Source: a virus (lineage: Duplodnaviria; Heunggongvirae; Uroviricota; Caudoviricetes). From it: a DNA stretch of 64,000 nucleotides. The stretch is taken from the IMG/VR virus record IMGVR_UViG_3300035394_000193; one strand, written 5' to 3'. Below the pieces are notes generated by a model. The model saw only the letters and a list, made by a program, of their open reading frames with translations. It had not been told where the DNA came from and made no database searches. This document shows positions 27,866 to 64,000 of this stretch, piece after piece (the stretch's first letter is position 1; each line of letters opens with the position of its first letter). The position numbers were made by a program, and so were the translations under genes.

Positions 27866-28788
27866 TGGTGACAAATGTAATTGATTATGATCAACTCCTA
27901 GTAGATAAAGAAAATGAAGTAGTTAAATATAATGATGAACTCCATAAATACTGGGTTAAAGAATCTAATCAATCCTGCATTTCGGTTACAACTCTTATTC
28001 ATCAGTTTACTGTATTTGATGAAGATTTTTGGTCTTCCTATAAAGCATTAGAAAGTTTAATAGGTGAAGATAATTTTAAAAGTGTAAAACCCGATTTGTT
28101 AAATTTTAAACAATTCAACCAAACTTACCTTGATAGAACAGGCGTTGCTTTAGACGCCTTTTCTACAAGGAAGCAGGAAATCCTTGAGGACTGACGAGAA
28201 AAGCGAGAAGCTTCTTGTATTAGAGGAACTGCAATTCATAGACAGCATGAGTTAGAACATCTTGCTGGTAAAACAAAAGAATTACAACATTTAGGTTTAG
28301 GTGGTTCATTTTCTACCAAGACTTCAAATAAAATAGAACCAGGACGTGGAATATATCCTGAATTACTTTTATCTAGAATATCACCTGATGGAAAACTTAG
28401 ATTGGCAGGACAAGCTGATTTAGTTATCATAGATGGATTTGATGTATACATTCTAGACTATAAAACTAATAAAAAGATTGATATGAAAGCATATTTCGAT
28501 AGAAAAACTAAAAAACATTCTATGATGAAGTATCCTCTTAACAATATACAAGATACTAATTTTTGGCATTATAGCATACAGTTATCTACTTACGCATGGA
28601 TGATTCAAAAGATTGATCCTAGATTCAATATTAAAGCGCTTATTTTATTACATTATGATCATGATGGAAATAATGCAACTTATGAATGTGAGTATTTAAA
28701 AACTGAAGTAGAAAGAATGCTAACTTTTCATAAACAACAAATTGAACACAATGAATTTAAGCAATCAAGAGAAAAAATTATTTTTTAG
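27862..28788 (+). CDS. PD-(D/E)XK family nuclease; first gene containing an in-frame TGA (28192-28194)
   Basis: ORF-track fragments 27862-28194 and 28402-28788 are in the same frame with no TAA/TAG between them. The merged protein has the motifs GTAIHRQHE ... LVIIDGFDVYILDYKTNKK (D ... D-x-x-x-D-Y-K) typical of Cas4/RecB-like PD-(D/E)XK nucleases. Confidence 0.6.
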
Positions 28789-28891
28789 AGTAGGAATTGC
28801 TATTACTAGTTTGATAGTAGTGGCAGCATTTTATTGAATGGCTATTAAATGAGTAAATGATTATAAACATAGTAATATTGTAGAACACCAA

Positions 28892-29464
28892 ATGATAGCT
28901 GCTAAGTATGAAGCAAAAGTTGATTCTATTAATATAGTAAATACAATTTTATTATCACAAGTAGATAGTCTTGAGAAAGAAATAAAAGAAGTTAAAGGCA
29001 CAAAAGAAATTGTTTATATTGAAACAACTAAAAAAGATAATATAATTAAGGATGCTAGTGCAGCAGACCACGCAAAAGCAATTGACTCTTTAACAGAACA
29101 AATGCCAACATGGGCAATTATTAAAGATACTCAAAATGACACACTTATTAAATATCAATTTACTAAAGAAGGAGTAATTAAATTAAGACTTAAAGTAAAT
29201 AGTCTATATAAATATAAAGACCTTTATAAAATTGATGAAGTAATTATACATAAACAACAGTTAGAAATTGATATTTTTAAAGAAGTATCCGAAAACTGTA
29301 AAGATATTGTAAAACTAAATGAAGATGCTATAACGATATATAAACAATCCAATGAGAAATTAATACAACAATTAAACAAATCTCAAAAACGAGCAGGTCG
29401 TTGGCCTTATTGGTTAGGAGGAGGAATATTAGGAGGAGTTATATTATGTCTATCAGTCAAATAA
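28892..29464 (+). CDS. coiled-coil protein with a C-terminal TM anchor
   Basis: 190 aa; C-terminus RWPYWLGGGILGGVILCLSVK; might start at ATG 28838 if the TGA at 28850 is sense. Confidence 0.5.
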   Translation: MIAAKYEAKVDSINIVNTILLSQVDSLEKEIKEVKGTKEIVYIETTKKDNIIKDASAADHAKAIDSLTEQMPTWAIIKDTQNDTLIKYQFTKEGVIKLRLKVNSLYKYKDLYKIDEVIIHKQQLEIDIFKEVSENCKDIVKLNEDAITIYKQSNEKLIQQLNKSQKRAGRWPYWLGGGILGGVILCLSVK

Positions 29465-29718
29465 TTAATGGCACATACAAAAATCTTTTAAATAAAGACG
29501 AAGAATTGTATAAAGAAAGAATAGCCATTTGTCATAAATGTAAATTGTTAAAAAAAGATAAAATATTTGGAGAAGTATGTAATTCAACATTATATCTAAA
29601 TCCAGCAACAAATGAAATCTCAAAAACAGCTAAACCAGGTTTTAGACATGGATGTGGCTGCGTGTTAGGATCAAAAACAAGAGTAGAAGATACAGAATGT
29701 CCACTAGGAAAGTGGTAA
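29446..29718 (+). CDS. Cys-rich zinc-ribbon protein
   Basis: ATG at 29446 (MSISQIING...); CHKC ... C ... GCGC ... C pattern. Confidence 0.45.
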   Translation: MSISQIINGTYKNLLNKDEELYKERIAICHKCKLLKKDKIFGEVCNSTLYLNPATNEISKTAKPGFRHGCGCVLGSKTRVEDTECPLGKW

Positions 29719-29745
29719 ATATTAATTAAAAAATGATAATGAATT

Positions 29746-30285
29746 ATGAGTTTAAAAGAAGAACAAACAGGGAAATTTTATATGGCTAATAGAATAGGAG
29801 CCAACGAGGATATTTTTCTACCAGAGAATCAAATACTAAGAGATGCTCAAAAATTAAGAGAGCAGAAAGAACTTGAAGAAGCTAATAAATTATTTTTATT
29901 AGCACAAGAGAAGAAACAAAAAGAACTTGATGAAAAACTAGAACGCTTGGAACTAATTCCAATGGGAGGAAAGATAATTATTTTACCTTATGCTTTAAAT
30001 CCTTACAGAAAAGTAATGGAGGGAAAAATTATAGTAGAATATACAGGAGATTTTAATAATCCTGATTCAGGTGAAAAAGATAAATTGGATGTCTTTGTTG
30101 GATGTGCACAAGTTATAGAAGTTGGACCTGAAGTAAAATATATAAAAAATGGCGACGATGTATTCTATGATACACGTACAGTATATCCTCTTCCATTTAT
30201 GCAGCAAGGATATAAAGTTACAGTAGAGCCATCTATAATAGCAGTAATTAATGAAGGATTAAAAGCACGTTTTAAAATGGAATAA
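29746..30285 (+). CDS. possible GroES/Gp31-like co-chaperonin
   Basis: 179 aa; C-terminal half GGKIIILPYALNPYRKVMEGKIIVEYTGD ... VFVGCAQVIEVGPEVKYIKNGDDVFYD resembles the GroES beta-barrel pattern (GGIILP ... G.V.AVG.G ... V..GD.V.Y); weak. Confidence 0.35.
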   Translation: MSLKEEQTGKFYMANRIGANEDIFLPENQILRDAQKLREQKELEEANKLFLLAQEKKQKELDEKLERLELIPMGGKIIILPYALNPYRKVMEGKIIVEYTGDFNNPDSGEKDKLDVFVGCAQVIEVGPEVKYIKNGDDVFYDTRTVYPLPFMQQGYKVTVEPSIIAVINEGLKARFKME

Positions 30286-30286
30286 T

Positions 30287-30511
30287 ATGGAAAATGAATT
30301 AAAACAATTTTTTCTTCCTGGTGATGTAGTAACCATTAGACAAGATATACCAAATAAACCTATAATGATTGTAGTTAAAAAAGTAACTAAATCAATTAAG
30401 ACAGAATCATTACGAGGAGATTTTTTTCAAGGAATTTTATGTCGATGATTTACAACACAAGGACAACTACAGGAAGCTTTATATAATACTAAAGATTTAC
30501 AGAAATTATAA
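30287..30511 (+). CDS. hypothetical protein, recoded (1 in-frame TGA at 30446)
   Basis: ATG 30287 through TAA 30509-30511; 74 aa if TGA is sense (…GILCRWFTTQGQLQEALYNTKDLQKL). Confidence 0.4.
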
Positions 30512-30513
30512 TT

Positions 30514-31095
30514 ATGATACAAGAATTAAATAAACTTAAAAATCCTTATGGATATGATAAATTAAAATCATTCCAAATAGGTGGAAGTATTACAGAAGAT
30601 AAAAAGAAAGAATTACTTCCTTTCTTTGTCTTCTTAGTATCGCAAGAAATAAATCCTGAAAAGTATGGTAAATTTAAAGATACCATACCAGGAGAAGAAT
30701 GAAGTTCTACAATTTCAGTAGATGACGACACTGTTAATAAAGCTGTTGAACAATATAAACAATTATCTGAAGAAAATTTAGCTCAATTAGAAGCTTATCA
30801 AACTCAATACATTGCAGATCATAAAACTAATTCTTTAGATAGTGCGCAATTTGCAGCTAAAGGTGCTAAACTTAAGAAATTAAATTTAGTTAAGAAAGCA
30901 GCACCAATTACAAAGAAAGAAACAGTTGCAGAGTCTGCATCAAATCCAGTTATCACTAAAGCTAAAGGTGGAACTACTAAAAAGAAAAAGAAATGTTCTT
31001 GTGGATGCGATATGATTCTTACTAAAGCCGCAGGAGGAAAAGTTATGGAAACTTGTTCTTGTAAATGTGGCGGTAAATTAAAGAAAAAGAAATAA
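30514..31095 (+). CDS. Lys-rich protein with a C-terminal Cys cluster, recoded (TGA at 30700)
   Basis: ORF 30514-30702 continues in frame to TAA 31093-31095; C-terminus CSCGCDMILTKAAGGKVMETCSCKCGGKLKKKK. Confidence 0.5.
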
Positions 31096-31097
31096 AT

Positions 31098-31673
31098 ATG
31101 AAATGATTTGTATATGATAATGTTAATGGTAATATATCTTTAGATGAAGAAGGACTTTTATTAGTTGAAGAATTTGATGCATTATTAAGTTTAGATAGAA
31201 ATAAAACTTCTACTGATAAAACTGGAAAACAAAAACTTAGAGCTTTTAGAGAATTAAAATATATATATTTATTCTTTGATTGAGCTAGTCCTTATTTCCA
31301 ATTTTCGGAACAAGATAAACATAATGAAGCATTAAAAGATTCTCGTTTAACACAAGCAGAATTTGATGACCCATTATTTCGTGCAGCTTGTAAAAAATAT
31401 GATTCACTACAAAACTCGTCCCTTGATTTAAGATTATTAAAATCTGCAATGGGAGCAGTTGAGAAACAAATATTTTATTTGGACCATGTAGATTTACAAG
31501 AAAGAGATCCCATTAGTGGCAAACCTATTTTTAAAAGCAAAGATTTAATTGCAGAAATTAAAGGTTGTAGAGATTTAATCTCAACTCTTAAAGAGTTAGA
31601 ATATCAAGTTAAAAAAGGAATGCAAACTGAAAGTACGCTTAGAGGAAATACTGAACTTGGAATATTTGATTAA
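31098..31673 (+). CDS. hypothetical protein, recoded (TGA at 31104 and 31290); candidate small terminase by position
   Basis: ATG 31098 is in frame with ORF 31449-31673; 191 aa; lies immediately upstream of the TerL-like gene. Confidence 0.45.
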
Positions 31674-31675
31674 TT

Positions 31676-33874
31676 ATGGCTAATACTTTTACTTGAGATG
31701 TTCCTTTGGGACAACCTATTGAGTATTTTGATATTGAACAATCTTTTGAATTAACTGGGTTTAGACCAATAAATGATACTCAAGGATTAGATTTTAATCC
31801 AAATTGATTTAGAGAAGACGCTCTTAATAAATTAAAAACAGGCCGATATAGTCCATCGTCTATTCCTATAGGTTCAAAGACTCATGTAGATTGATGAAGA
31901 GAAAGAATTGATAGATGTAATAATGGATATACTGTAAATGGATATAGAATAACAGGAGATAATTATTTCTTTCTTAATTTCTATAATCTTAAATCTTCGG
32001 ATTTTGAGACTATAAATCAAACTTATGGATTTCCAGAATTTTTAGTTTTTCAATATGAATATTTTCATTATTTGGAAATGTGTGAAAAATTAAAGAAAGA
32101 TACATCTGTATTAAAATCTCGTGGTATTGGATTTTCTGAAATGGCTTCTTCATTTATAGTAAGACCATATACAACTATTCCAAACTTTAGATCTGTTGTT
32201 TCTGCTTTTTCAAAAAACCATTTAACTCCAACTCTTAGTAAGATTTGGTTACAAATGGATTGATTAAATGAAAACACAGAAGGAGCTTTGCGAAGAGTTC
32301 GCATGAATATAAATACGGCTACACATAAAAGAGCATCTAAAAAAGATAAAGATGGAAGTGAATCAGGACATCGTTCAGAAGTTGAAGGACTTGTTTGCGA
32401 TGAAGTTGATAAACTTAGGGGAGATAGAACTCAAATTTTAATCTACGAAGAAGCAGGTGCGGATACAGTTTTATTAAAGAAATGAGTTAAAGGCGAAGCT
32501 TTAATTTCTGTACTTGGAGGTAAAAGAGTTGGACGACGTATTGCTTTTGGAACTGGAGGTTCCTCTAAAGCAAGTTCAATGCAAGGATTAAAGAAAATGA
32601 CCTTAAATCCACAAGCATATAATATTTTACCTGTTAGACATAATTTTACTCAAGATGGAAAATATATTATCTCTGGATTATTTATTCCTGCTTATAGAAT
32701 TGTTTATGAGCTTATTGATAGTCGAGGATGATGTAATGTTGGAAAAGCTAAAGAATATTATTTAAAAGAACGATCAAAATTAATTGATGAACCAAAAGAT
32801 TTATTAGAATATAAATCTGAATATTGTTTTACAATTGAAGAGGCTTTAATTCAACATTCAGACAATTTATTTCCGGTCGAGGAAATAGCAGAACAATTAG
32901 CACATATTGATATTTATAAAGATATTCCATTACCTAAAGCTGGATTTTTAACATGAGCAATTGATGAAAATACTAAAATGAGGAATGGAAAAGTAAAATG
33001 ACGTGAAGATCCTGATGGAAATATATTAATAGCAGAACATCCTATAATGTCTGAAGAAGGCACGGATTATAACAATTTATATGTTGGAGGAATTGACTCA
33101 ATTGATATTGGAGCAACAGACTCTGCACAATCTAAAAAAGCAAATGAAACTGTATCTTCAGAATTTTGTATTGTTATTAAGAAAAGAATTTTAGGATTAC
33201 AAGATCCAAAATATGTTGCAATGTATAAAGACAGACCTAGAGACCCTAGAGAAGCTTATGAAAATGCAGCAAAACTACTTACTTATTATTATGCGAAAGC
33301 TGTCTTAGAATCTACAAGAACTACTATTACTACTTATTTTAGAGATCATAAATATTTATCTTTATTAATGAAACGTCCAAGAGCAACTATGCCTGATATT
33401 TCAAAAGGTAATTCAAATATGTATGGTACTCCTGCTACTGTTAAAGTAATTGAACATTATAGAGAATTAATCTATGATTTTTGTTTAGATTATTGTTATA
33501 CAATATCGTTTAGAGAAATATTAGATCAATTACTAAACTACTCTGATGAAGACAAAAAGAAATTTGATATTGTTGCAGCTATGGGAATGTGTGAATTAGC
33601 AGATGAGGAATTATCAGTTAAAAAACCAGAAGCAAGAGAACCACAAGGTAAAAAATTCCAAGATATTGGATGATGAACTGATAATAAGGGATACAAACAT
33701 TATGGAGTAATTCCGCAAACAAGAGAAGAGAAAAATGATATGACTAGAAAAAATAGGGATGAAACATGAATTAATAATGAACCTAAATCTGAATTTTGGG
33801 AAAATACACCTCATTATAGAAAATTTTCACAAGAAGAATGAGCAACTTATAACGCATTAAAAGAACCTAAATAA
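31676..33874 (+). CDS. terL: terminase large subunit-like protein, recoded (about 10 in-frame TGA)
   Basis: 732 aa after merging ORF fragments 32072, 32288, 33047 (all in the same frame mod 3). LVCDEVDKL Walker-B-like segment; C-terminal RNase-H-like nuclease pattern YVGGIDSIDIGATDSAQ; size and position typical of TerL. Confidence 0.65.
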
Positions 33875-34221
33875 TGACAGAAACAGAATTAGAGCAAGCG
33901 ATACGTGATTACATAATGAGCTTATATAAAGCTTGCTATAATGGTTGATTACAAGTCGAAAAATTAAATCCAGGATATAAATTAACAATAGGGATTCCAA
34001 GTTATATGTTTCCAACTACAACAGCTGGAGATTGAGAAACGGATGATGAATTTTTAAATTATATCTATGAAGATTTAAGAATAAGAAATTATATGAGAGT
34101 TTATTTCTACAAAGTAGTAAGAACTCCAAGCGTTAATGAAGAAGGACCAACAAGTGATCAAGTATCTACTGATACAGTAACATGTGATCCAAACTATACA
34201 GATTACAATGGATTTTTATAA
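33874..34221 (+). CDS. hypothetical protein, recoded
   Basis: ATG 33874 overlaps the TerL stop (taATG); 115 aa to TAA 34219-34221, with 2 TGA. Confidence 0.45.
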
Positions 34222-34236
34222 TATTAAATAAATAAC

Positions 34237-34515
34237 ATGTCAAGAAGAACTGATAATGACGCATTAAATTATATACAATGCGCTGGAGGCTCATATCCAG
34301 TAACAACAGGAGCAGGAGTAAAAGTTGTAAATTGCTATGCTTTTGAAGCATGAGAAGATACAGTAATTGCTTCATTTAGAGATAATTATGGGGCAACAAT
34401 AGTTACCGGTTGGGAAACTATTACAATAAAAGAAGGAAAGACTATATTCTTTTCAACAAATATCAAAGATTTTACTGTAACATCAGGAGGTCTTGGTCAA
34501 ATATTTAGATTGTAA
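34237..34515 (+). CDS. hypothetical protein, recoded
   Basis: ATG 34237 to TAA 34513-34515 (92 aa, 2 TGA); its stop overlaps the ATG of the next gene. Confidence 0.45.
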
Positions 34516-36296
34516 TGCCAGGACTAGGAATAGGAATCTCTCCAATATTAAAACAAAGTAAACGTATTCCTGGTAGATTTATTTCGTCTAATATTTTTAA
34601 TGCTGCAGAGAATCAAAATGTTGTTGGAACTGCATTAGCATTACCATTAGGAGGTGCATATTCAATAAAAGCAGGTGGTGATGGTGCTTTATTTACTATT
34701 AATGGTAGTACTGGAGCATTAACTGGAAATAGTAACTTCAATTATGAAGTTAAAAGTTCTTATTCACTCACTATTATTTATACAGTACTAGCTAAGGACT
34801 TTGAACAATCTATTAGTGTTAATATAACTAATGTTAATGAAGTTCCAACTGATATAACTTTATCTGCTTCATCAGTAGGAGAAAACAATATTATTGGTAC
34901 AGTTGTAGGTGCTTTATCAACAACCGATGTTGATGTAGGTGATACATTCACTTATTCATTGGTCAGTGGCACAGGTTCAACAGATAACGCTTCATTTGCT
35001 ATATCTGGAAGTAATTTAGTTACTAATGCAGTGTTTGATTATGAAACAAAATCAAGTTATTCAGTAAGGATTAGGACTACTGATGCTGGTGGATTATATT
35101 TTGAAAAAGCTTTTACAATAACTGTTACGGAAGGGTTTATATTACCCCTTACTACTACTGGAACAGGTGCAGGTGTATCTACTCTTGGATTAACAGTTAG
35201 TGCTGATAGTATAATTACTTTGACTGGTAATGCTTATTTTTACGATGATGCAGCAGGTACAACAAATGCTAATCAATCTCGTACAATAACAAGTGGTGCA
35301 ACAAGTACATTTTATTTGAAAGTACTTTCTGGAAGTAGTAATTTAACTACTGAAAAGTTAAAGGTTACACAACTAAACACATGGGATAGCAGCACAAATG
35401 CAGCAAGCATAAATGCTTTTGATATTGCTAATATTCCTGCTAATATGACTGTGTTTTTTGATAACTATATTATTGGGGTGTCTGTATATGTTATTGGTAA
35501 TAATACTATTACAGGCAATCTAAGTAGTTTGCGCTCAAACCTTACATCATTTAATGTTGGGGTAGGAACAAACAGTATTACAGGTAATTTGAGTAGTTTA
35601 CCTACTGGTCTCACTTCCTTTAATTGTGGTACAGGTAATACAATCACTGGTAATCTAAGTAGTTTACCATCTGGTTTAACATTTATAAGGGTATCAGGTT
35701 CAAATACAATTTCAGGTGATTTAAGCAGTATTGCAAGTTTACCATTAACGGTACTAAATTTTCAAGGAAGCAATACCATTGCAGGTAATTTGAGTAGTTT
35801 GCCATCAAGTTTACTTCTTATACTTGTGCTTGGTAGTAATACCATTACAGGTAATTTGAGTAGTTTGTCGAGTATGAATTTATTGGCATTTCAAATAGTT
35901 GGTAATAATACCATTACAGGTAATTTGAATGGATTACCATTAACACTTAATCAGTTACAAATCGGTGGAAGTAATACAGTTTCAGGTAATTTAAGTAGTT
36001 TGTCATCATTACTTATCTATATTCATTTTTATGGTAACAATACAATAAGTGACTATACGTCTGGTAAAACGTGGAACAATAATATTAATTTCTTTAGAAT
36101 TACACCTGTTGCTGGAGGTGGACTTTCCTCAACAGAAGTTGATAATCTTATTATTGACTTAAATGGTAGTGCATGGGCAGGTACTTCAAGAACATTATCA
36201 TTAATAGGCACTAATGCAGCAAGGACAGCAGCAAGCAATGCAGCAGTAACTTCCCTTACAACAAACAAATCTGTAACAGTAACAACAACTGCATAA
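34515..36296 (+). CDS. virion-associated protein with cadherin-like domains and C-terminal leucine-rich repeats
   Basis: 593 aa with no TGA; two cadherin-like modules (VNITNVNEVPTDITLSASSVGENNIIGTVVGALSTTDVDVGDTFTYSLVSG ... FDYETKSSYSVRIRTTDAGG) then at least 8 tandem repeats of about 23 aa (NTITGNLSSLPSGLT ...) with the LRR pattern. Confidence 0.6.
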   Translation: MPGLGIGISPILKQSKRIPGRFISSNIFNAAENQNVVGTALALPLGGAYSIKAGGDGALFTINGSTGALTGNSNFNYEVKSSYSLTIIYTVLAKDFEQSISVNITNVNEVPTDITLSASSVGENNIIGTVVGALSTTDVDVGDTFTYSLVSGTGSTDNASFAISGSNLVTNAVFDYETKSSYSVRIRTTDAGGLYFEKAFTITVTEGFILPLTTTGTGAGVSTLGLTVSADSIITLTGNAYFYDDAAGTTNANQSRTITSGATSTFYLKVLSGSSNLTTEKLKVTQLNTWDSSTNAASINAFDIANIPANMTVFFDNYIIGVSVYVIGNNTITGNLSSLRSNLTSFNVGVGTNSITGNLSSLPTGLTSFNCGTGNTITGNLSSLPSGLTFIRVSGSNTISGDLSSIASLPLTVLNFQGSNTIAGNLSSLPSSLLLILVLGSNTITGNLSSLSSMNLLAFQIVGNNTITGNLNGLPLTLNQLQIGGSNTVSGNLSSLSSLLIYIHFYGNNTISDYTSGKTWNNNINFFRITPVAGGGLSSTEVDNLIIDLNGSAWAGTSRTLSLIGTNAARTAASNAAVTSLTTNKSVTVTTTA

Positions 36297-36297
36297 T

Positions 36298-36921
36298 ATG
36301 AGCGATATAACTTATAATAATGAATTTTGTATAGTACGTGAAAACAGTACCAATGCAATAATAATAGATGAACTTCTTACAGCAAGGGTTGAAACAATGC
36401 AACAGATTGAAAAGCATACAACCCTTAACACTGTTCCGCCTGCATATTTTCCAGCACTTCCTAATAGTGGTTGGATTGAAAAGAAAATGTACAATTATAA
36501 CAATAAAACAGTTTGCTGTATTCAACCACATAACCGTACTATTTACCCACCTGAGCAAACACCTGCATTGTTTTCATTTTACCGTGAAGATACAGGAAAT
36601 CTTCAATGGATAGAAGGGGAAGCAGTTGCAATAGGAGCTAAGCGTATTTATAACGGTGTTAAATACAATGTTATACAACCACATCAAACACAATTAACTT
36701 GGAACCCTTCATTAACAGTTGGTGTTCTTTGGGAAGTAGTTGTTACACCACCTGCAAACCCTCCACAATGGGTTAGTGCTAATTGGGGGCAGTATGTGTT
36801 GAATTACGAAGTGTTGGATAGTGGTAAGATTTGAAAGGTAAAAACCGTTACACATACTTGGATTCAACCATCGCTTACAGGAAATGGTGCAATAAGTTGA
36901 ACTTTTGTTAGAAATGCTTAA
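36298..36921 (+). CDS. hypothetical protein, recoded (TGA at 36832 and 36898)
   Basis: ORF 36298-36834 continues in frame to TAA 36919-36921. Confidence 0.5.
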
Positions 36922-36964
36922 TCATCTATATTATGATAATTAATTAACATTTTAAGAATTTTAA

Positions 36965-39184
36965 ATGAATCAAAGAAATAGTGAAAAAGAACAAGATATA
37001 ATTAATAATATAAATAGAGCTATTAATGAGTTGGTGTATGAAAAGACCCAACTCATTAAAGCCTATAATTATTATCATGGAAAAAGAGATCCAGAGCAAT
37101 TTAGGCATTTAGAAGAAAACTATGGAATTGGAACTCCTACTTCTGTTGAATTTGTACCTTTGGTTCGTAAGCACGTTGATGTATTAATTGGAGAATACTT
37201 ATCAATTCCATTACTTCCGAAAATATCTTGCAAGGATAAATCAACTTTATCTAATATACATAGAGATAAACAACTCCAAATAAATAATGAAATAGCTACT
37301 GAGTTAAAAAAGCATTTAAATAATTCTATTTATAATGCAATTTATAAAACAGAAGGACAAGAACCTCAAAAACCTTTACAAGATAAAGAAATCGAGTTAT
37401 CATTACAAAATCTACAAGAATCAATTGAAAGAAATTTTATTTCAGATTATGAAATAGCAGCACAAAATATTGTAGATTATGCAACACAAGCTAGACATAT
37501 TGATTTTTTAAATCAAAGAAAAACTCTTGCAATTGATTTATTAGCAACCGGTACATGTTATTATAAAGTATTACCTTCTCAATCAAAAGAGAATATATCT
37601 TTAAAAATTCTTAATCCTGTAAATACTTTTATTGATCGAAATCCTGAAAGTGTTTATTTAAATAAATCTATGCGAAGTGTATGTAGAGAATATTTAACTA
37701 AAGATCAAATTCTTGCTAGATATGGTGAAGTTTTAACTAAAGATGATTTAGACGAATTAGAAAGTTTAGAAGATTTTAGTATTGATAGTTCAACTACAAC
37801 ATATCTTAGAAGTTATGATACAGTAACAGGTAATACAATGTCAGATGGTATTCTTGGAGGATTTGAAGTAACACCACTTCTTCCATTTGAAAGAAATACT
37901 TCAAAATATTTTAGAGTATATCCTGTTTATGAAGTTGAGTGACTTAAAACAGAAAAGGAAGATGGCACATTTGTTACAAACAGATACTCAGGAATAAGAA
38001 TTGGAACACATATTTATATACCAACAGGTAAAGTAGAAGATGTTCCTCGAAATCATGATTCTCCAAATGAATGTACATTATCAGTTAATGGTATATTCTA
38101 TGGCGATAGAAATGGAGATCCTTATTCTTTAATGCTTGCAACTGCAAATTTACAGGATAAATATGATATGCTTTGTTTCTATAGAGATAATGTAATCTCT
38201 GAATCAGGTACAGTTGGAGATTGAATTGATATAGCGTATCTTCCTAAAGTATTAGGTTCCGATTTAACAGAAAGATTAATGAAATGAAAAGCCTATAAAA
38301 AACAAGGATTAGCTATCATTGATTCTTCACAAGAAGGTTTATCACCAATGAATACAACATTTGGAGGTTTTGATGATACTATTAAATTGCAGACTATTCA
38401 AGCAATTGATTTAGCTATTCAAAGAGTAGAAGAAGCTTGTTCAACAATAACTGGTGTATTCAGAGAAAAGCTTGGAGGCATAGAACAAAGAGATGCAGTA
38501 AGTAATGTACAAGTTGGAGTTAGGCAATCATCTTATATTACTAAACAATTTTATCAAACCCTTGATTTAATGACAAGAGAAATGTTATTAGATATTCTTA
38601 ATCTTACTAAAACCATATATAAAAAAGGTATTACAGGAACATTGATTCTTGGAGAAAGATTAAATAAAGTATTTACCGCTCTCCCTGAACATTATACTGC
38701 AACTGATTATGATATTCATATTACAGATAGTGCAGATATAATTAAAGAACAAGAAACCATTAAACAAATTACAATGGAATTTATTAAAGGTGGAATTGTT
38801 GATCCTGAAGTTATATTAGAAGCTATTACAGCAACTGGTCTCACAAAAATGAAAGCTGATGTTGGGATTGCAATGACTAAGAAAAGAGCAGAAAATAATC
38901 AAGTTGGACAATTAAATCAACAATTACAAGAGCTTGATAAACAATTAAAACAAGCTCAATCAGAAGCTCAGAAATTACAGAAAGAAGTTGAGAGATTAAA
39001 CTCTGAAAAAATACAAATTGAGGCTGGAAGATTAGCATTTGACAAAGAACTTGGTTGGTACACAGCTAAAAATAAGGTTATGTTTGATGAAGCTAAAATA
39101 GAATGAGAAAAGAAAAGGGTACAGTTAGAAGCTGCACAACTTTTAGATGATAATCATAATAACGACGAAATAAAAAATAATTAA
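36965..39184 (+). CDS. portal protein candidate, recoded
   Basis: 739 aa formed by ORF fragments 36965-37942 and 38348-39106 in the same frame with several TGA; size, position downstream of TerL, and a C-terminal coiled coil are typical of portal proteins; no named motif. Confidence 0.5.
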
Positions 39185-39735
39185 TGATACAAATAAACTT
39201 ATTAAGAGTATCTCCAGATAGTCAATATTTGGAATTTAGTGTAGAATGTCCAACAGGTTACAGGTTTAATACATTAAATGTTATTAGATATGAACCTGTT
39301 ACAGGAACAGTTGATGCTTCCTTAGATTTAAGCGGACTTTTACAAGGAACTACCACTAAAGAAATTATGAGAATTGCTACTTCTGCAATCGATCCTGATG
39401 TTACAATGTATGAAGTAGAATTTGGAGTCGCACCAATTAACGGAGAAGATCCGCCGATTGAAAATGCTACAGGAGTATGTTCAAACATTAATTTTGTATA
39501 TGCTAATCTATTAGACTTAATTATGAGTTTTACAAATTGTTGTATTTCTGATACTCAATATGATAACTTAGATAGAAATTATATGATTTTATATGCACAC
39601 CAAGAAGCAATGAGATTAGAAAGATATAATGATGCTAAATATTTTTATAGTATTATCTGAAATCTATTTGTAAGTTGTGGACCGACAGTAAGACAAAGTA
39701 ATATAATTAATAAACCTTGTAATTGTAGTAACTAA
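39184..39735 (+). CDS. hypothetical structural protein, recoded (TGA at 39658)
   Basis: ORF 39184-39660 continues to TAA 39733-39735. Confidence 0.45.
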
Positions 39736-41323: not shown

Positions 41324-41324
41324 A

Positions 41325-49951: not shown

Positions 49952-49969
49952 TCAAATAAACAACTAACA

Positions 49970-51400: not shown

Positions 51401-51421
51401 TCTCAACAACGTCTCAAAGAT

Positions 51422-51452: not shown

Positions 51453-51496
51453 AGATATTTTACTAAAGAGATAATATAACAAAAATATAAAAAATA

Positions 51497-52390: not shown

Positions 52391-52396
52391 TAACAC

Positions 52397-53527: not shown

Positions 53528-53557
53528 CCCTTTATAAAAAAATAAATTTATTATAAC

Positions 53558-54727: not shown

Positions 54728-54747
54728 TTTAAATTAATCAAAACCTA

Positions 54748-54786
54748 AAGGGGGCGGCATTCACTGCCTTCCCCTTTTTTATTTTA
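54748..54786 (+). terminator. rho-independent terminator
   Basis: AAAGGGGGCGGCA-ttcac-TGCCTTCCCCTTTTTTATTTT. Confidence 0.7.
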
Positions 54787-54791
54787 CCTAT

Positions 54792-55460
54792 ATGATAGAA
54801 AAATTAGCCTCAGCAATATATAATGATATAGTTAGCGGATTAGTTGGATTTACAAGTACTCCCACTATATCAATAGAGCAACTTATAGATGATGTCCTGG
54901 ATGAAAGACTTCAGATTATAAAAGAATACTCTATGAAGAATTTAGTACCTAGAAATGATTTATTAATGGGAATACATTGTATTGATGTTGATTGTAAATC
55001 ATTAGATAAATGTCCTTGTAGTGGTATAATTTATTCTCCTCCAATAGCTCATTTTGAACTTCCTCAAATTGTAAATGATTTAGCTCAAGAATCTGTAGAA
55101 TTTTGTGGAAGTATTGATCGAAATGTGCAATTTAAAGTATATACAAATACAGCATGACAGTATCATAAATATTTAAGAAGAGGGAGTGAGAAACCATTTG
55201 TTTATATTGAGCCTACTCCGAATGAAAATAATATGTATGATGCATGAATTTATAATGCACCATTACTTAAAAAAATATCCGTAATTGCTATTTTTAAAGA
55301 TCCAAGACAATTATTACAATATGATTGTTGTGCTGGAGATGAAATAGATAATTATTCATTTTTATCTGCTGAAATCAAGAAAAGACTTACAGAGAAGAAA
55401 ATTAGATATTACAGACAACTTTTACAACCACCTCAACCTAATACTCAAGCTCCACGATAA
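54792..55460 (+). CDS. hypothetical protein, recoded (TGA at 55155 and 55245)
   Basis: ORF 54792-55157 continues in frame (checked codon by codon) to TAA 55458-55460; 222 aa. Confidence 0.5.
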
Positions 55461-56164
55461 TGGCACAATACTCTTTTCACACTGCATACACACAAGCCCG
55501 TGAATTATATGGCTTGGAGCTTAATCCTGATGAATTTGAAACATTAGGAGTAATAGCATGAGATAAAATTGGAAACAAACAATATAAATTATATAAATAT
55601 CAAGTAGAACCTACCCAAAATGATTTAAATGAATGGTATGTTGACCTTCCTTGTAATGTAGATATTATTGAGGCAGTTACTGCAGATTATGAAGATTATC
55701 AAAAAACTTCTAATCAACATTTAGCCGGACATACACAAAATGGATGGATTGAAGGTTATATTGAATCAAGAAAATATAATACAGGAACATTGTATTCAGG
55801 TGGTAAATTTATTAAATATAGACAAGAAGGAAATCAATTAAAACTTTCAGACAAATTTAATAAAGTTAATATACTATATAAAGGTTTTGTTGCTGATGAA
55901 GATGGATTACCTTACTTATCTGCAAAAGAAGTAGATGCAATAGCAGCTTTCTGTGCATATGTAAGTGATTTTAAAGCAGCTAGATTAACTAGAGATGCTA
56001 ATACATTTCAAATGTCTCAAGTTATGGAACAAAAATGAAAAAGTTTATGTACACAAGCAAGAGTTCCTGAATATATTAATCAAAATGAAATGGATGAAAT
56101 CTTAAATGTATCTGTATCTTGAGATAGAAAAAGATTTGGTAAATCATTTAAACCAATTCGCTAA
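55460..56164 (+). CDS. hypothetical protein, recoded
   Basis: ATG 55460 overlaps the previous stop; in frame with ORF 55790-56038; TAA 56162-56164; 234 aa. Confidence 0.5.
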
Positions 56165-56176
56165 GAAACATTATAC

Positions 56177-57208
56177 ATGAGAATGTTATTTAATCATGGA
56201 CTAACGACTGAGGAGTTGTTTACGAACACTCCTAAGTCGGTAGTTGATAGAAAATGAAGATGATTTATTACTAGGTATGGAAGTACTAACAGTTATGAAG
56301 ATGCAATTTCCGATCCTTTTAAATATGCAATAGGATTAATATTACATTATGTTCTTGACAATAGAACTCGATTTGTAATTCCTTGTGTTTCAGAATCTTA
56401 CATTGATTTTGAAATTGTTACAGGAGATATGTTTGAGGAACAAAGACAGAATGGACGATTCGGAGAGATTGATTTTATAGAATCAGATTTTACAGGATAT
56501 GCACTAAGATATTATTTTAAGACTAAGGCATATCAAAAGGCTTATCCAATCTATATGGGCGGTGAATTAAAGCAAAAATTTTTAACAGGGATTAATTCTG
56601 GAGTCAAATATTACAGTATTAAAGATGTAACAATTAATGATTTTTTGCCAAAAATTCATGAAAAATTTTCAGAATTATCCAAGATTGAAGTCAAAAAATT
56701 AGTGCTACACGGATTTAGACGCATGCACAGCGCAATAAAATATGGATGTGCAATATCTATCCAAACGAAAAAAAAAATTAACTGCGTGGCTCATATTGGA
56801 GCAATATATTTAAAACCTGATAAGCAGATTAAAGAGTATAGTATTCGTCGTGATAAAAAATTACGAAAGATAGAAGGATGAAAACGACCACCATTTGATG
56901 GTTATTATTATATCGGATTAAATGATGTTGCATTTGAAAGATGGGCAGAAGCTAATAAAAAAGCAAGAACTATTTTACATTTTACCAACATAATACCAAG
57001 AAGAATTAAAGAAGAAATATATTATAAAGCAAAGCATTTATATGTATTTAGATTTAAAAGAAAAGATTTTAAAGGATGATCTTATTGAGCTGAGCAGCTT
57101 AAATTAAGAGATGTAGAATATATTGGAGAGGCTTTAGACAGACAATTTACTGCTTCTACTATCACATGAAAACAATTAATAAAAGAATATGAGACAAGAA
57201 GCAGTTAA
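56177..57208 (+). CDS. hypothetical protein, recoded
   Basis: ATG 56177 is in frame with ORF 56429-56881; stop TAA 57206-57208; about 343 aa with several TGA. Confidence 0.5.
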
Positions 57209-59432
57209 TACTTTTGAAGGTGGGGTTAATTACGACCTTAATCCTTTAACAACTCCGGCTAATATACTTACAGATGCTATAAATAGTGGATTTATCACTT
57301 TTAATGGAGATGAACTAGCTTTACAAACAGATGCAGGTAATACTACAATAAAATATTTAGAAACTGATGTACATTTAACACAAGGATTTTATCCTTTAGG
57401 AATTAAAGAATATGGCGGAGTATTGTATATTATATCAGGAAAACACCCTACTAATACAACCTCTTTATATGATACAGAAGTACCTTATGCAGTAGGAGAT
57501 ATTGTTTATAATACAATTTTAGATGTTGATTATTATTTTGAATGTTTAACTGCAGGAGGAAATAATCTTCCAACTTCTACAATAAGTGATGAAAATTGGT
57601 TATATATAGGAATTGAAAAAGATTTTATTAATAAATATGGAAGTGTAGAATTTGGAAGTTATCCAAGTCCTGAAATAATTAATGCTGATATATTTGATAC
57701 CTCAGTAGATTTTGATTTAGTAAACGAAATTGCTACTCCTGGAGAAGAATTTAAATTAGAATTATACAAACCTAAAATAATAAATAGATCTATATTTAGA
57801 GCCGGTGTTTATGTTAATTTTCATAAAGTTATAGGAAGTACATTAGTTACTGATAATATTTCTTATGATGCGTTTACATACGATGTCACAAATAAAGTAG
57901 CTACTAAGAATCCAGCAAGTTATAAAAATATTTATAAAGTTAAATTATATCATCAATTAACAAATGGATATATAGATTTAACAGACAATGTTTGGGAACA
58001 ATATGCTAAATATGTTGGTCAAAATGATGCAGAAGATTTAAACATGACTGGACCTCCACGATTTTGATTTAATGATAATAATTTTAATTACCATTGTCCT
58101 CATAATTTTAAAGGTAAATTAGTTACGTCTGTTGAATTAGAAGAATTAGATGTATTTAAATTATCTTCAATAAGAGTTGATTATACCGATCCTAATTATG
58201 AAGTTAATTTTGGTTTAACATATACAGAAACTGCACAATGAAATCAAGGAATTTCTCCGAATACTTGTACAATTTATTATACTTCTGACGGCAGTGAACC
58301 TAATACACAAGAAGTTGTTTTAACTACAACAGTATTAACTAATCAAGATGTAACATCATTTATAATAAGTTTTGATGATACTATTCCTGGAACTTACAAT
58401 GGAAAAACTATGAGATATAAAATTATTCCTGATTTTTATTTTGATGGAGTAGAAATTGATAAAGTTGATATTCCACAACAATTTCTTGATTTACATACAA
58501 TTGTAGGAAGTCAATTAATTACAAGTGAAATGGCAGGAGTTAAATTTATTACTCAACCTGCTACTAATTTATGTGAAGTAGGAAATACAGGATATAGAAT
58601 TGCTGATTATCTTGATTTAGTTAATAACAATGATGAAAATCTTGATAGTAATTTAGATCCTGCAGGAACTGACGTTTATCAATTTTATAATGATAATATT
58701 ACTCCTAATGTAGGAGGAAATTATTTAGGAAGTTATACAATAGGATTAACTGGTTTGGCTGAATTAGCCTCTGAAGGTCCAATAATGTTAAACTCTAATA
58801 TTCGAGATTATGTTATTAGCTTATTAGAAGCAACTCTTGTTAAAGTTTATGATGTTACTTGTACAACTGTAATTTTAACTGTAAATGTTAATGCTACTTA
58901 TGGAGCAACAATACCAATTACTGTAATGCAAGGAGCTACTTCAATAGTAGGAACTGCAACAGGACCTACTACCTTTACATTCCCTATACTTCCAGGAGTA
59001 AATTACACTATTAGTCCTAGTTCGTCTATGAATGGAATAATTGATGCTTATGATTATATAGGTAATACTTTAGTTGATGAAGAAATTACTTATGGATTTG
59101 TAATTGATTTACATATGATTGGAAATCCTATAGTACCTGGTGGTACAGATTATGAAGATTTCTTTACTGTAAATGTTCCAATAGGTTCTTTAAATATTAG
59201 TTTTACTAATTTTACAAATGAACAAACTAATGTAACATTTTCCCCAACTACAGAAAATGTTAATATAGTTGGAGGAGAAAGTGATGTTGTATTTAGTTAT
59301 GATTCAACTTTAGGAGATCCAACTTATTTAGTAACGTTTTCATCTGCTGCAGTTCAAACAACTTATATTAATATAGCAGATTCTGTAGTACTTATAGGTG
59401 ATGCAATACTCTTAGAAACTTATACACTTTAA
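57189..59432 (+). CDS. large structural protein, recoded (TGA at 58065 and 58239)
   Basis: 747 aa from ORF fragments 57189 and 58410 in the same frame; Thr/Asn/Val-rich beta-type composition. Confidence 0.5.
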
Positions 59433-59443
59433 TAATTATACTG

Positions 59444-62400
59444 ATGCCTTTACCCTTAATAACAATACATTTGGATAATGCAATGTACGGATTCCCTCTT
59501 GAAGGGAATCTCGTATATCAGTATAATCCATTCCAAAACTTACAAAATCCTAATCCAAGTGAAGATAATTCATCAGGATTAGTTGCATTAAGTATAAATA
59601 GTCAAAAAGCAGGAATTAATATTACTGAACCAGTTACAATAGAAACTGAAGTATCTTATGATGATTCTATAAATTTGATTATAACAGATCAAGTAAATCC
59701 TCCTAAAATAGTTAATTCAAGATTTTACCAAACTAATACTATGACTTATTCAGTTGCAGATAGAAAAGGTAATCTTGATACTAATATTTATTCAGAAGAG
59801 AATTTTAAAATAGAAGCTGGATTAGTAAAATCAATTAGAACTATTTCTACAATAGACTTCTTAGGAATAAAAGATGGAGGTCTTATGAAAATAGGAAACT
59901 ATACATTCTATTTTAGATTAGCAGATTCTGATGGAAATGAATCAGATTTTATTGCTGAATCAGGAAAAGTAGTTTGTCATATAGGTTCAATTAATACTCC
60001 AAGAGCTATTCGTGGTGGACAACAAGATGAAATTAGTTATAAACTTATTAAATTTAAAATTAATAATTTAGACTTAGCTTATGATTATGTAAATGTTTAT
60101 TATACAAGATCAACAGGTGATGGAGATCAAGAAATAGTAAAAGCTTATAAAATCAATGATAAGTTTAAAATAACTAATAGAGATATTGATTTAACTATTA
60201 CAGGATACGAAAACCACGAAGAAATATCAATAGATGATATTAATGTTCAATATGCTAATTTTGATTCAGTTAAAACTTTACCTAATTGTCAAAATATTAC
60301 TTTTGCAGGTAATGTTACAAATGATTATGAACTATTTAAAACTCTTGAAAAATATAGTTTACATATTACTCCAAAAGTAGTATACGATACAGAAGGAATT
60401 GGCAATCTTGATAACTTATATAATGAAGCTTATTTAAATAATGGATATGAATATTTTAATGCTAAAAATATTTATTATAAATTAGGATATTGAGATGAAG
60501 AAATATATAGAGTTGGAGTAGTTTATATTCTTAATAATTATACTTTATCTCCTGTATTTAATATTAGAGGTATTAAATCTCTTGATACTGCTACTATGTT
60601 TACTTCATTTGCATTAAATGCTCCAATTAATTATGGAGAAGATTATATCTTTGAAACAACTGATGATCCATTAAATCCGGAAAATGCTAAAGGAGTATTC
60701 AAGATTGATTGTAACACATATAATATGTTCAATCGAACAGATACTATAAAACCTTTAGGATTACAATTCTTATTTAATGATAATGTAATTCCTGGAGATG
60801 GAAAGTTTATAGATGGATTACAAGATTTAACTAAAGGATTTTTCTTTGTTAGACAGAAACGTATTCCTACAATATTAGCTCAAGGAGTTGGTATAGGAAC
60901 AAGTAAGAAAGCTAACATCCCTTTACTTAAAGGTACTAAATCTAGTAAGTCTTTAAGTTATAATTATTTTGCAGAATCATTTATAAAACCAAGTGGAGCA
61001 AGTCAAATATTAGGTGGCGATTTATTTAAAGTAGAAAATGCAGATGTATGGCAAAATGCTTTACTATGTCCTGAGGCCTGTGTTAAAACTACAACTTTTA
61101 ATACATTCTTTAATTCTTCTGAATATTTCCTAAAACAATTTAAATATAGACCTACATCTGATGTTTTTAATAACTATGAATCGGATAGAGATAGTTTTGC
61201 ACTTAAAAATTTACAGTCAAATGTAACTAATTTACAATCATTTAATTCGGAATTAACTTTAGTTGAACCAGGAATTGAATTAATTAGAAATAATACCTAT
61301 GATTTCTGTTCTAAAGCAGGTGATGCAATCATTGCTTATAAGCATGTTGATCCAAATCTTGGTAATTATGAAGATTTAACTACTTCAAGTACAACTGATT
61401 GAAATGGAACTACTTCTAAAGTAAGAGGTGAATTTAATACCTTTATAGGATGTAGTACTAACAATATTACTGCAGGATTATATTATAATATATTTCAAAA
61501 AGATTATAATTTTGAAAATTATTGAAAAGAATATTTCTTATTAAGATATAATGATGCAAGTCCTTTCTTACCTATAAGTGATAGAACAAGCTGAACTGAT
61601 ATAAATATTGATGGAACAGAATATTCTTCGGATTACATATTCAGAGGAGACTGTTATATAAATACTTATACACATAGAATGCATTGGAATTTCATAGATA
61701 CTGAACTTCCTACTAATAAAAGAATTGTTGACCCTTATACATGGGCAAAACATTTCAAAATTAAAAGTAAAGCATCGGTTCAAGTAATTGATAATAATGG
61801 AAATCCACAAGAGTTAGCTACTGCAGTTGCCTTAACTTACCATAAACTTCTACTTTTATTTACATATAAAAATGTATTTGAGCCTGAGTGAAAAGACGAT
61901 CTTGGTACTGGAACAGATACAGCTTCATATACAGGTATATTAGAATCCGATCAAAAGAAGTTTAAAAAATATTCAGAAAGAAATGGATTATTTGGAGCTG
62001 AAAAAATTAACAAACCTGATATAAATGCAGTAGGTTTAGGACATTGGGCAACATTTAAAATTTGCAGTAATGTAAATTTAGCAATGAGAGATTTAGATTT
62101 CTCACGACCAATGGAAGAAGCTCTACATAGACAAAAAAGAGGATTCTATCCTTTACAATCTATGGATAAAAACAATCACTTACCTGAATCAAATGTAATT
62201 AACAATGGAATAAGTAAAACATTAGGAGATAAATACTATTTTGAAATTCCTGATGTACCATTCATTAAAACAAATTTTGCCACACGTATTTTCTATTCTA
62301 ATGTATTACAAAACTCTATATTTACTAATGGAAATAGAGTGTTTGAATCTAAAAATTATTTAGATTATACAAGAGAATATGGAAGTTTAGTAAAATTAGT

Positions 62401-63727
62401 AGAATGATATGGAAAACTAATTGCTGTTATGGAACATGGAGTTTTACTAATTCCTGTTAATGAAAGAGCAATGATGACTAATGCACAAGGTGAGAATGTT
62501 TACATTAATACTGCAACTGTACTTCCTCAAAATCCGAAAGTACTATCTAATACATTTGGAAGTTTATGACCAGAATCCATTACTAAAACATCAAGATTTA
62601 TTTATGGAATTGATTCTGTTGGTAAAAAAATATGAAGAACTGACGGAGAAACTTTTGAAAATATATCTGATTTAAAAGTTCAAAAGTTTTTAAATGATAA
62701 TATTAATTTACGAGAATCTGATAAAGATAGAAGTGTTAATGTTAATTTTATAAAAACACATTATAATGCTTTTAAACATGATATTATGTTTGTGTTTAGA
62801 TATAATGATAAAGTATGAAATTTATGTTGAAATGAGCTTTTACAAAAGTGAACAACTCAGTATACATGAATTCCGGAGTTTTCAGAAAATATTAATAATC
62901 TTTTTTATACCTTTGCAAATCAAACTAAACATACTTCCGCAAGTAATAAATTGTATAAGCATGGGTTCGCTGGAGTAGTAGAAGAAGCCGGAAATATTCT
63001 TCCTGCTTACTGATATGATGAACAACATCCATTTGAATATGAATTTGTTGTAGCTACTATTCCAGGAGTACAAAAAATCTTTAATAATTTAAAGATTATA
63101 TCTAACTTAGTTGAACCCGATTCATTCTATTACGAAATAGTTGGTGAAGGATTTGATTGATTCAGTTACAAAGACTTAATTGTTAAATTAAATGATGTAA
63201 CTTTAGCAACAATTGATGGGGTAACATTAACAACTTACACAACAGTAGCTACTGAAGACAATGTTAAGTTAAGATATAAAGAATATTTAACTGATAAAAC
63301 TGATGTTAAAAAACTTCCTTATATTTTCTTACAATCATTTGATGTTAATAATCCATTATCATTCTTTAAAACAAGAACTAAACCAACTCCAGGAACAGCT
63401 TATAATATGTCTACTTTAAGAGATTTAACTATTAGAGAACATAACAAAACTAAAGAAAAATTAGTAGATAGTTATCAAATGGGTATGGACATAAAGAAGT
63501 ATGGAAGAATGAAAGGTAATATGCAATATTTAGAAGATGCGTGAGATGTACAAATACAGCCAATAAGTTTCCCTTATTGTTATATTAGTGCTTCTACATT
63601 AATGTTTCTTCCTAATAAGGAAATGAGAATAAGGGACAAATATATTAAAATAAGAGTCAAATATGATGGTAGCAAATACGCAATAGTAAATGCTATTCGT
63701 TCTAATTTTGCGGTAAGTTTTGCATAA
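59444..63727 (+). CDS. very large structural/tail protein (1427 aa) with about 20 in-frame TGA codons
   Basis: ORF fragments 59444, 60596, 61679 and 62084 share one frame; 62402-63727 was checked codon by codon with no TAA/TAG and TGA at 62405, 62567, 62633, 62816, 62828, 62849, 62867, 63011, 63158, 63542; stop TAA 63725-63727. Confidence 0.55.
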
Positions 63728-63728
63728 T

Positions 63729-64000
63729 ATGAAGAAAAAATTAATTAAAAAACATCAACGAGGAGATAATATATGAGCTCCTCAACAAAACCTTTTAACA
63801 GGAATAGAAGATATAACAAATTTCTTTAATAAGAATGTTACATCTTCTGTTCCTCAACAGAGGAGTACAGTATCATTAATGCAACCAAAATCTACCAATC
63901 CTGTTGTTTCTTCAATGTTTCCTAAACAATTAAGTGATACAGCTAAAATGTTTCAACCTGGAGGTGGAAATCTTTCAGGAAAAGGAACTGGATTTTTAGA
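63729..64000 (+). CDS. hypothetical protein, partial (continues beyond the window), recoded
   Basis: ATG 63729; MKKKLIKKHQRGDNIW(TGA)APQQ ...; open to the window end. Confidence 0.4.

Follow-up and report, generated by a model that had tools for sequence, protein, structure and literature searches.

Reassignment of a stop codon in late genes is well documented for crAss-like phages. Yutin et al. (2021; PMC7886860) described 243 crAss-like genomes with TAG read as Gln or TGA read as Trp, for the most part in their late genes and accompanied by suppressor tRNAs, and the TGA-to-Trp change is found within the groups Beta, Delta and Zeta (PMC7886860). The Zeta-group phage Lera carries TGA codons in the terminase large subunit (TerL), muzzle and ring proteins along with a tRNA-Sup(UCA) (PMC12386605), and Borges et al. 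(bioRxiv 10.1101/2021.08.26.457843) reported TGA-recoded Agate and Jade phages, in which code-change machinery written in the standard code lies upstream of the recoded genes. Here, a comparable change of code is described for a 64,000-nt stretch (the window; GC content 31%) of the IMG/VR virus record IMGVR_UViG_3300035394_000193 (Caudoviricetes), where a block of co-oriented genes with in-frame TGA codons follows a standard-code region encoding an opal suppressor tRNA(UCA) of Trp type. With a probability of roughly 0.9, this is a two-code crAss-like phage with the standard code in 1-26962 and with UGA read as Trp from 27137 on, through the tRNA at 25632-25704. The coordinates of all features are collected in Table 1.

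Extent and phage affiliation of the recoded block

Read with the standard code, the plus strand beyond about 27.1 kb, up to the end of the window, consists of many short open reading frames (ORFs, counted stop-to-stop) lying in the same frame. With TGA taken as a sense codon, these fragments fuse, for example into ORFs of 743, 739, 697, 749 and 1451 codons stop-to-stop. The late genes were called from the first ATG of each merged ORF, and protein queries were built with X or W at the TGA positions. The 32 resulting genes contain 73 in-frame TGA codons, distributed over 23 of them, and not a single in-frame TAA or TAG; their stops are TAA (30) and TAG (2). In the 27 main late genes, 66 TGA stand beside 58 TGG codons, again with no in-frame TAA or TAG, and the stops are 25 TAA and two TAG, while five small gap-filling genes contribute 7 further TGA. 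Since TGA makes up 29% of the stop trinucleotides on the plus strand and is nevertheless the one found at 66 out of 66 interruptions (p of about 2e-36), decay or error is ruled out as their origin. A recoding of TAG was also considered and rejected, with no in-frame TAG and 10 genes of the window that stop at this codon.

The two parts of the window differ sharply in their codon statistics. The coding density of the late block is 0.708 with code 11 and reaches 0.986 once TGA counts as sense, in comparison with 0.736 and 0.753, respectively, for the region 1-27136. In-frame TGA and TGG number 0 and 84 in the upstream genes versus 66 and 58 in the late block (Fisher p = 8e-20, for the 64-kb window). 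Moreover, Trp-equivalent codons amount to 1.25% in the early genes; in the late genes, TGG by itself gives 0.50%, and the two codons TGG and TGA together give 1.07%, i.e., their frequency is back at the early-gene level only if TGA is counted, which supports its reading as Trp. The region 13.5-28.8 kb is 99.95-100% identical across three independent assemblies from different samples (ENA ERZ27248459 k141_157500, L039; JGI 3300033518, L040; Logan SRR21758066, L041), and the muzzle protein sequence is present on six contigs; because of this agreement and recurrence, the TGA codons are real and not an assembly artefact.

The first in-frame TGA is located at 27188, within the motif HGY-TGA-A, as codon 18 of the first recoded gene. 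It stays TGA in the ortholog on the related contig L038 (TerL 85% identical), which places the code boundary between 26962 and 27137. This boundary is sharp: PhoH (26276-26962) is TGA-free with a TAG stop, the next gene is recoded, and the same switch occurs after PhoH in L038. A scan for sigma-70 promoters and terminators around the boundary gave results no better than shuffled sequence. Within the window, the recoding is confined to this one block, and the upstream genes are TGA-free. The block is not purely structural, as a PD-(D/E)XK exonuclease is included.

The preliminary description of this DNA had set the start of the block at 28192 and had seen no in-frame TGA upstream, up to 28190. 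The existence of the block was upheld, but its actual start is 27137; likewise, the lack of TGA holds for the 40 genes in 1-26962 but not for the remainder, given the codon at 27188. The statement that nearly every gene is affected has to be toned down, as nine late genes are TGA-free, and the label "late/structural" suits the terminase, portal, head, tail and muzzle genes but not the exonuclease. Instead of about 10 TGA codons in TerL, 13 were counted, and instead of about 20 in the 1427-aa gene, 15, although ten of these indeed lie between 62405 and 63542 as it had said. Merging into full-length genes was reproduced, except that two genes end at TAG rather than TAA. The sequence contexts it quoted (LQMD-TGA-LNENTEG, PAY-TGA-YDEQHP and GFD-TGA-FSYKDL) were all found, and the comparison of translation tables 4 and 11 that it had suggested turned out as anticipated, the late-block density going from 0.71 to 0.99 and the ORFs lengthening.

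Homologs of the TerL, portal and muzzle proteins point to a Crassvirales-like phage. The matches to PHROG profiles run as single stretches over several TGA positions of the merged proteins, and the portal also matched the solved portal gp20 of crAss001 (7QOG) with E = 2.7e-10. The major head protein candidate was recognized by a weak PHROG hit only, with no sequence match in the PDB. The TerL is 26-31% identical to those of named crAss-like phages and 44.5% identical to that of an unannotated gut phage contig of 117 kb, its nearest GenBank record; with 21 kb of the late block as query, megablast gave no nucleotide match among the phages of GenBank, and the relatives are seen at the protein level only. 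A typical crAss-like genome has about 100 kb. Since the near-identical ENA contig k141_157500 is 168,911 nt long, the genome is probably well above this norm, and several TerL relatives are located on contigs of 160-177 kb. On these protein comparisons, the phage looks like a member of a large, divergent crAss-like lineage.

Some peculiarities were observed in the relatives. The TerL homolog P0042 (1045 aa) contains an intein and LAGLIDADG domains. In L038, two minus-strand genes upstream of the suppressor tRNA (L038:1-2550), one of them a lytic transglycosylase, hold 10 TGA and no TGG codons, so the recoding in this contig is not limited to one strand. The same contig has a GIY-YIG gene with 4 TGA codons directly before TerL (L038:9177-10022, plus strand).

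Assignment of TGA to tryptophan and the suppressor tRNA

In an alignment of TerL with 119 homologs, 8 of the 13 TGA columns hold W in 90-117 sequences, at a background W frequency of 1.8%. Four of the other five columns show W mixed with Y or F, and the last one is mostly gapped. A TerL peptide with a UGA position is IWLQMDWLNENTEGALR. The muzzle protein, also aligned with 119 homologs, gave W in at least 90 sequences for 13 of its 15 TGA columns, including 118 of 119 sequences at the PAY-TGA-YDEQ site and 116 of 119 at the GFD-TGA-FSY site. Furthermore, the counterpart of TGA codon 441 in our portal is a Trp in the crAss001 portal 7QOG.

The top TerL match, P0001, is the same TerL with W at every TGA; because database proteins may already be translations with code 4, the comparison was made at the codon level as well. 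On 27 IMG/VR contigs with TerL relatives, the same positions alternate between TGA and TGG or carry TTY/TAY codons, and the TerL genes of L017, L021 and L023 use TGG only. When the late proteins with relatives in these loci were pooled, 465 codons aligned with the TGA codons of the window, among them 133 TGA, 104 TGG, 80 Tyr, 44 Phe and, below background, 4 His codons, with Gly outside the 12 commonest residues. In the opposite direction, TGG codons of the window align with TGA in the related loci 27 times. From these alignments, the identity of TGA as Trp is as secure as comparative data allow.

The Trp-type tRNA(UCA) gene belongs to a TGA-free stretch and precedes the first recoded gene by about 1.4 kb. 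Its anticodon loop, CUUCAAA, is that of tRNA-Trp with C34 changed to U, and its discriminator base is G73. Orthologs are present at the same spot upstream of PhoH in L032 and L038. When 185,579 genomes of bacteria and archaea were searched for its D-arm, without restriction on the anticodon, at least 120 matches were obtained. Among the matches listed, 79 were tRNA-Gln and 25 tRNA-Trp, those nearest to the phage tRNA and to its orthologs were all tRNA-Trp(CCA) with G73, and the best match of the L032 ortholog was a Chryseobacterium tRNA-Trp(CCA). Covariation over five phage orthologs and the Chryseobacterium tRNA-Trp showed 99% of the cells paired and 11 pairs with double changes. No tRNA was found within 10 kb of TerL in 26 of 27 TerL-related loci. 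Judged by sequence and pairing, this tRNA appears to be a functional suppressor derived from tRNA-Trp. Its charging by the host tryptophanyl-tRNA synthetase (TrpRS) is probable, since G73, C35 and A36 are retained and tryptophanylation of UGA suppressors has been published, according to work cited in bioRxiv 10.1101/2021.08.26.457843.

These results agree with the preliminary description in its central points. Its reading of TGA as Trp is supported by the TerL and muzzle columns, the exchange of TGA and TGG in relatives and the Trp of the portal, and the homolog alignment it called for places the TGA codons of TerL and muzzle at conserved Trp columns and not at domain boundaries. A Trp-like suppressor tRNA, such as it had mentioned, is present and conserved at 25632-25704, while a second tRNA(UCA) (see below) is not Trp-like. 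Its comparison with crAss-like phages is apt as well, with a portal and a muzzle protein of crAss type and the same pattern in the literature.

A separate observation concerns tRNA(UCA) genes of other phages. A scan of viral contigs for the D-arm of the tRNA at 25632-25704 combined with a UCA loop gave 27 hits, about 20 of which, together with two bacterial contigs, represent tRNA(UCA) genes of 92-98 nt with a Trp-type body. They have A1-U72 in 19 of 21 cases, an invariant G73 and, in most, an encoded 3' CCA. Their variable region forms a hairpin of 5-6 bp with the loop U-CCA-AA, identical to the native anticodon loop of tRNA-Trp; the extra helix covaries (94% of cells paired, four of five pairs with double changes), and the CCA of the loop is invariant. 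The extra hairpin may be a mimic of the anticodon arm that keeps recognition by TrpRS or by a modification enzyme while the real anticodon reads UGA. No description of such a CCA-loop arm was found in the literature searched. For several of these loci, the coding density is much higher when code 4 is applied, and a TerL relative has one of the genes on its 170-kb contig (L174 and L012). The suppressor tRNA of the window has no extra CCA hairpin.

Proposed decoding and rival explanations

In the proposed two-code scheme, the host would use the standard code and the early genes would be readable in it. The phage tRNA(UCA) of tRNA-Trp origin, once charged with Trp, presumably by the host TrpRS, would decode UGA within the block in competition with the host release factor 2 (RF2), and is expected to out-compete it. 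Suppression would have to be near complete after the tRNA has accumulated, since single genes hold 13-15 UGA codons. The host gene prfB is autoregulated by a UGA-dependent frameshift; reading of the UGA at this frameshift site as Trp might lower RF2 synthesis and thereby be of additional help. A delayed or gated translation of the late genes, as hypothesized in the literature, may result.

Four points weigh against this scheme. The genome possibly has about 169 kb, of which only 64 kb is visible in the window. The terms "early" and "late" derive solely from what the genes encode and how they are oriented. Nine of the 32 late genes have no TGA, i.e., the recoding is not uniform across the block. 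Finally, the non-Trp acceptor end (C73, possible G-1) of a second phage tRNA(UCA), at 17944-18019, is left unexplained by it.

This second tRNA is aberrant: 2 nt are inserted after position 9, U10 and C25 are mismatched, position 37 is a G, and the discriminator is C73, so that the TrpRS determinant G73 is lacking. Pairing of C73 with the G before the first position would give a possible 8-bp acceptor helix. The pair G-1:C73 is the identity mark of bacterial tRNA-His. Compared with 272 bacterial tRNAs, its best matches were weak and belonged to His (score 19) and Asp (18), not to Trp. The exact anticodon arm had three hits in viral contigs, all within GC-rich coding sequence and none of them a tRNA; a degenerate pattern of the D-arm and loop gave no hits in viral or metagenome contigs, and the T-arm plus acceptor gave none in genome contigs. 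If the gene is functional, UGA might be read in infected cells by tRNAs of two identities, or this tRNA might have a separate role (read-through of UGA stops of the host or of early genes, or a decoy), a prospect that we regard as unlikely. To our knowledge, neither has been described for recoded phages.

An alternative built on this gene would have two phage tRNAs of different identity, the Trp-type one for the late genes and the aberrant one either inserting another amino acid or serving outside decoding or against the host, for example by read-through of host UGA stops or as a decoy. The 2-nt insertion and the D-stem mismatch suggest that the gene may be decaying, although its Rfam score is above the tRNA threshold and the universal tertiary nucleotides (U8, A14, G18 G19, U33, T54 T55 C56 and A58), read by eye, are all kept. 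The 8-bp acceptor helix with G-1:C73 and the neighbours His and Asp instead of Trp would fit a different identity, but the likeness to tRNA-His is weak (19 versus 18 for Asp) and the TGA columns show no preference for His (4 of 465 codons, below background). The gene is identical in three assemblies, but it had no homolog in the viral, metagenome and genome scans, and hence its conservation is not demonstrable. Overall, this alternative appears doubtful.

A host that itself uses code 4, as Mycoplasmatales and Entomoplasmatales do, and is simply followed by its phage would agree with the GC content of 31% and with the Trp identity of TGA. A code 4 genome would, however, use TGA throughout, whereas the 40 upstream genes have 84 TGG, no TGA and three TGA stops. 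The phage also brings its own tRNA(UCA), nearest, among the matches listed, to tRNA-Trp(CCA) of standard-code bacteria including Flavobacteriales, and its portal and muzzle are of Crassvirales type. The Crassvirales hosts known to us are standard-code Bacteroidota, and a code 4 host is very improbable. Even less probable is a reading of TGA as glycine (code 25): phages of Absconditabacteria and Gracilibacteria with this code exist (bioRxiv 10.1101/2021.08.26.457843), but Trp or other aromatic residues occupy the TGA columns, no Gly occurs in those of TerL and muzzle, and the tRNA(UCA) is Trp-like and not Gly-like.

It is similarly far-fetched that the TGA codons are real stops, due to split or decayed genes, to sequencing or assembly error, or to selenocysteine or occasional programmed read-through. 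The many short same-frame fragments under code 11 would fit such an origin, but all 73 interruptions are TGA with no TAA or TAG, the profile matches of TerL, portal, head and muzzle proteins are continuous across the junctions, the codons fall at conserved Trp columns rather than at domain boundaries and exchange with TGG among relatives, and the sequence is identical in independent assemblies. The tRNA of selenocysteine combines an 8/5 arrangement of the acceptor and T stems with a D stem of 6 bp and a long variable arm, and its UGA codons would be expected at Cys or Sec columns, not at the Trp or aromatic ones seen here. On account of the anticodon, ARAGORN labels both tRNAs of the window as SeC (selenocysteine), but neither has a long variable arm (both variable loops are 5 nt), the Trp-type one folds into a regular cloverleaf (7/5), and the peculiarities of the aberrant one, among them the possible 8-bp acceptor helix, are of another kind. 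Moreover, a protein with 15 selenocysteine residues is implausible.

Gene content of the window and comparison with known systems

Table 1. Position and properties of the features discussed, in the window (nt) and, in the last row, on other contigs.
Feature	Position	Strand	Properties
Standard-code block	1..26962		40 genes, 84 TGG, 0 in-frame TGA
HAD-family gene	6935..7627	-	stops at TGA in ATGA overlap with next gene
Further early genes stopping at TGA	15027-15221; 16260-16718		
Second tRNA(UCA), aberrant	17944..18019	-	ARAGORN; Rfam tRNA 37.9 bits
Opal suppressor tRNA(UCA), Trp-type	25632..25704	+	ARAGORN; Rfam tRNA 63.3 bits; 73-nt cloverleaf
Recoded block	27137..63727	+	32 co-oriented genes, 23 with in-frame TGA, 73 TGA in total
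First recoded gene, membrane protein	27137..27880	+	TGA at codon 18 plus two near C-terminus
PD-(D/E)XK exonuclease	27862..28788	+	phrog_298, E = 1e-16; 1 TGA (28192); stop TAG
Two small genes	29446-29718; 29746-30285	+	TGA-free
Gap-filling small genes	30287-30511; 33874-34221; 34237-34515; 39735-40076; 48212-48436	+	7 TGA together
Terminase large subunit, 732 aa	31676..33874	+	phrog_6681, E = 4e-60, aa 66-664; 13 TGA, 2 TGG
Cadherin-domain protein	34515-36296	+	TGA-free, 3 TGG
Portal, 739 aa	36965..39184	+	phrog_6547, E = 2e-41; 4 TGA
Two genes, one with tail-fibre-like N-terminus, one with beta-helix domain	43413-48210	+	TGA-free; 16 TGG, 0 TGA together
Holin-like gene	48212-48436	+	TGA-free
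DUF5675 gene	48436-48819	+	TGA-free
Scaffold-like acidic protein	48983-49951	+	TGA-free; TAG stop 49949-49951
Major head protein candidate, 476 aa	49970..51400	+	phrog_11589, E = 2.5e-8; 1 TGA, 6 TGG
TGA-free gene	53558-54727	+	
Crassvirus muzzle protein, 1427 aa	59444..63727	+	PF25731 crAss_MUZ, E = 1e-23; 15 TGA, 4 TGG
Long tRNA(UCA) loci	L162-L180, L182, L183, L186, L187 (e.g. L169:290-385); bacterial L102:410-506, L106:1554-1647		

The TGA-free genes of the recoded block include the putative lysis genes and several modules of probably foreign origin. The segment between TerL and portal with the cadherin gene (34200-36960) is missing or replaced in relatives, and this, together with the absence of TGA, fits a recent acquisition from standard-code DNA. 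The tail-fibre-like N-terminus is found again in the gene at 41325-43409. Overall, the TGA-free cadherin, tail-fibre-like and beta-helix genes look like recently imported standard-code modules. The scaffold-like gene is in frame with the major head protein gene, which begins 18 nt after the TAG of the former; the shared frame is probably a coincidence, as the window has no tRNA that would suppress TAG.

The standard-code block encodes TerD, TerC, a vWA protein, a ComF-like phosphoribosyltransferase, a HAD hydrolase, an adenylosuccinate-synthetase-like protein, SPFH, HTH and LysM proteins and PhoH, and the stops of its genes are TAA (28), TAG (8) and TGA (3). The minus strand of 1-8269 carries a Ter-type stress-response set, consisting of DUF7873, the adenylosuccinate-synthetase-like protein, TerC, the vWA protein (TerF-like), the ComF-like phosphoribosyltransferase, the HAD hydrolase and TerD, and the SPFH/Band 7 protein is located at 12151-12930. 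Relatives of the early gene 18421-18837 were found neither in viral nor in metagenome contigs, and no release factor or TrpRS was detected among the scanned proteins of the window.

Several structured RNAs were noticed in the same block. A tRNA-like gene at 3886-3960 (minus strand; Rfam tRNA 37.4 bits), to which ARAGORN gives a two-base anticodon, has normal acceptor, D and T arms, and its anticodon arm is swapped for a 6-bp stem capped by a GAAA tetraloop, which leaves it without a usable anticodon. Next to it, and within a non-coding gap of 1 kb, the Y RNA-like family YrlA was matched weakly at 4097-4195 (minus strand; 35.5 bits versus a gathering score of 69, E = 9e-6 for 1.2 kb searched), with a tRNA-like module of T-arm and D-arm. 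A match to the self-cleaving Pistol ribozyme (38.8 bits versus a gathering score of 34.5) lies in an intergenic gap at 19653-19716 (minus strand).

The public gene calls for this sequence already translate TGA as W. As the phenomenon has been published along with its Trp identity and its bias to late genes, and the public calls use code 4, no current view is changed, and the window is a new example of documented phage recoding, not a new phenomenon. Its practical consequence is that annotation of the region needs translation table 4, since translation with table 11 breaks up the terminase, portal and muzzle genes and would leave the phage misclassified or missed. It also adds a divergent, probably large crAss-like lineage to the phages with late genes that the host would be unable to read before the phage tRNA is made.

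A close likeness is seen to the TGA-to-Trp crAss-like phages, including Lera, with TGA codons in TerL, muzzle and structural genes that align with Trp, a phage-encoded tRNA-Sup(UCA), recoding mostly in the late part of the genome, and portal and muzzle of Crassvirales type. In comparison with them, the lineage of the window is distant (TerL about 30% identical to the named ones, no nucleotide match), its genome may have about 169 kb, it encodes two tRNA(UCA), one of them aberrant, and its standard-code part contains the Ter-type cluster. The Agate and Jade phages have the code 4-like recoding in common with the window and are predicted to infect hosts with the standard code; the suppressor tRNA of the window is likewise placed upstream of the recoded genes, among DNA written in the standard code. 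They belong, however, to different clades; Jade is predicted to infect Firmicutes and encodes release factor 1 and TrpRS, neither of which is among the scanned proteins of the window, whose putative holin and DUF5675 genes, moreover, are without TGA.

With the crAss-like and Lak phages of code 15 (Ivanova 2014; Peters 2022, PMC9523058), the window has in common that one stop codon is reassigned in late genes via a phage suppressor tRNA. This TAG-to-Gln case, which has been validated by metaproteomics, differs in the codon and the amino acid, and TAG still serves as a stop in 10 genes of the window. As in code 4 of Mycoplasma and Spiroplasma, UGA would be read as Trp through a tRNA-Trp(UCA); in those bacteria the change is genome-wide with loss of RF2, while here it is limited to one phage block and other genes still stop at TGA.

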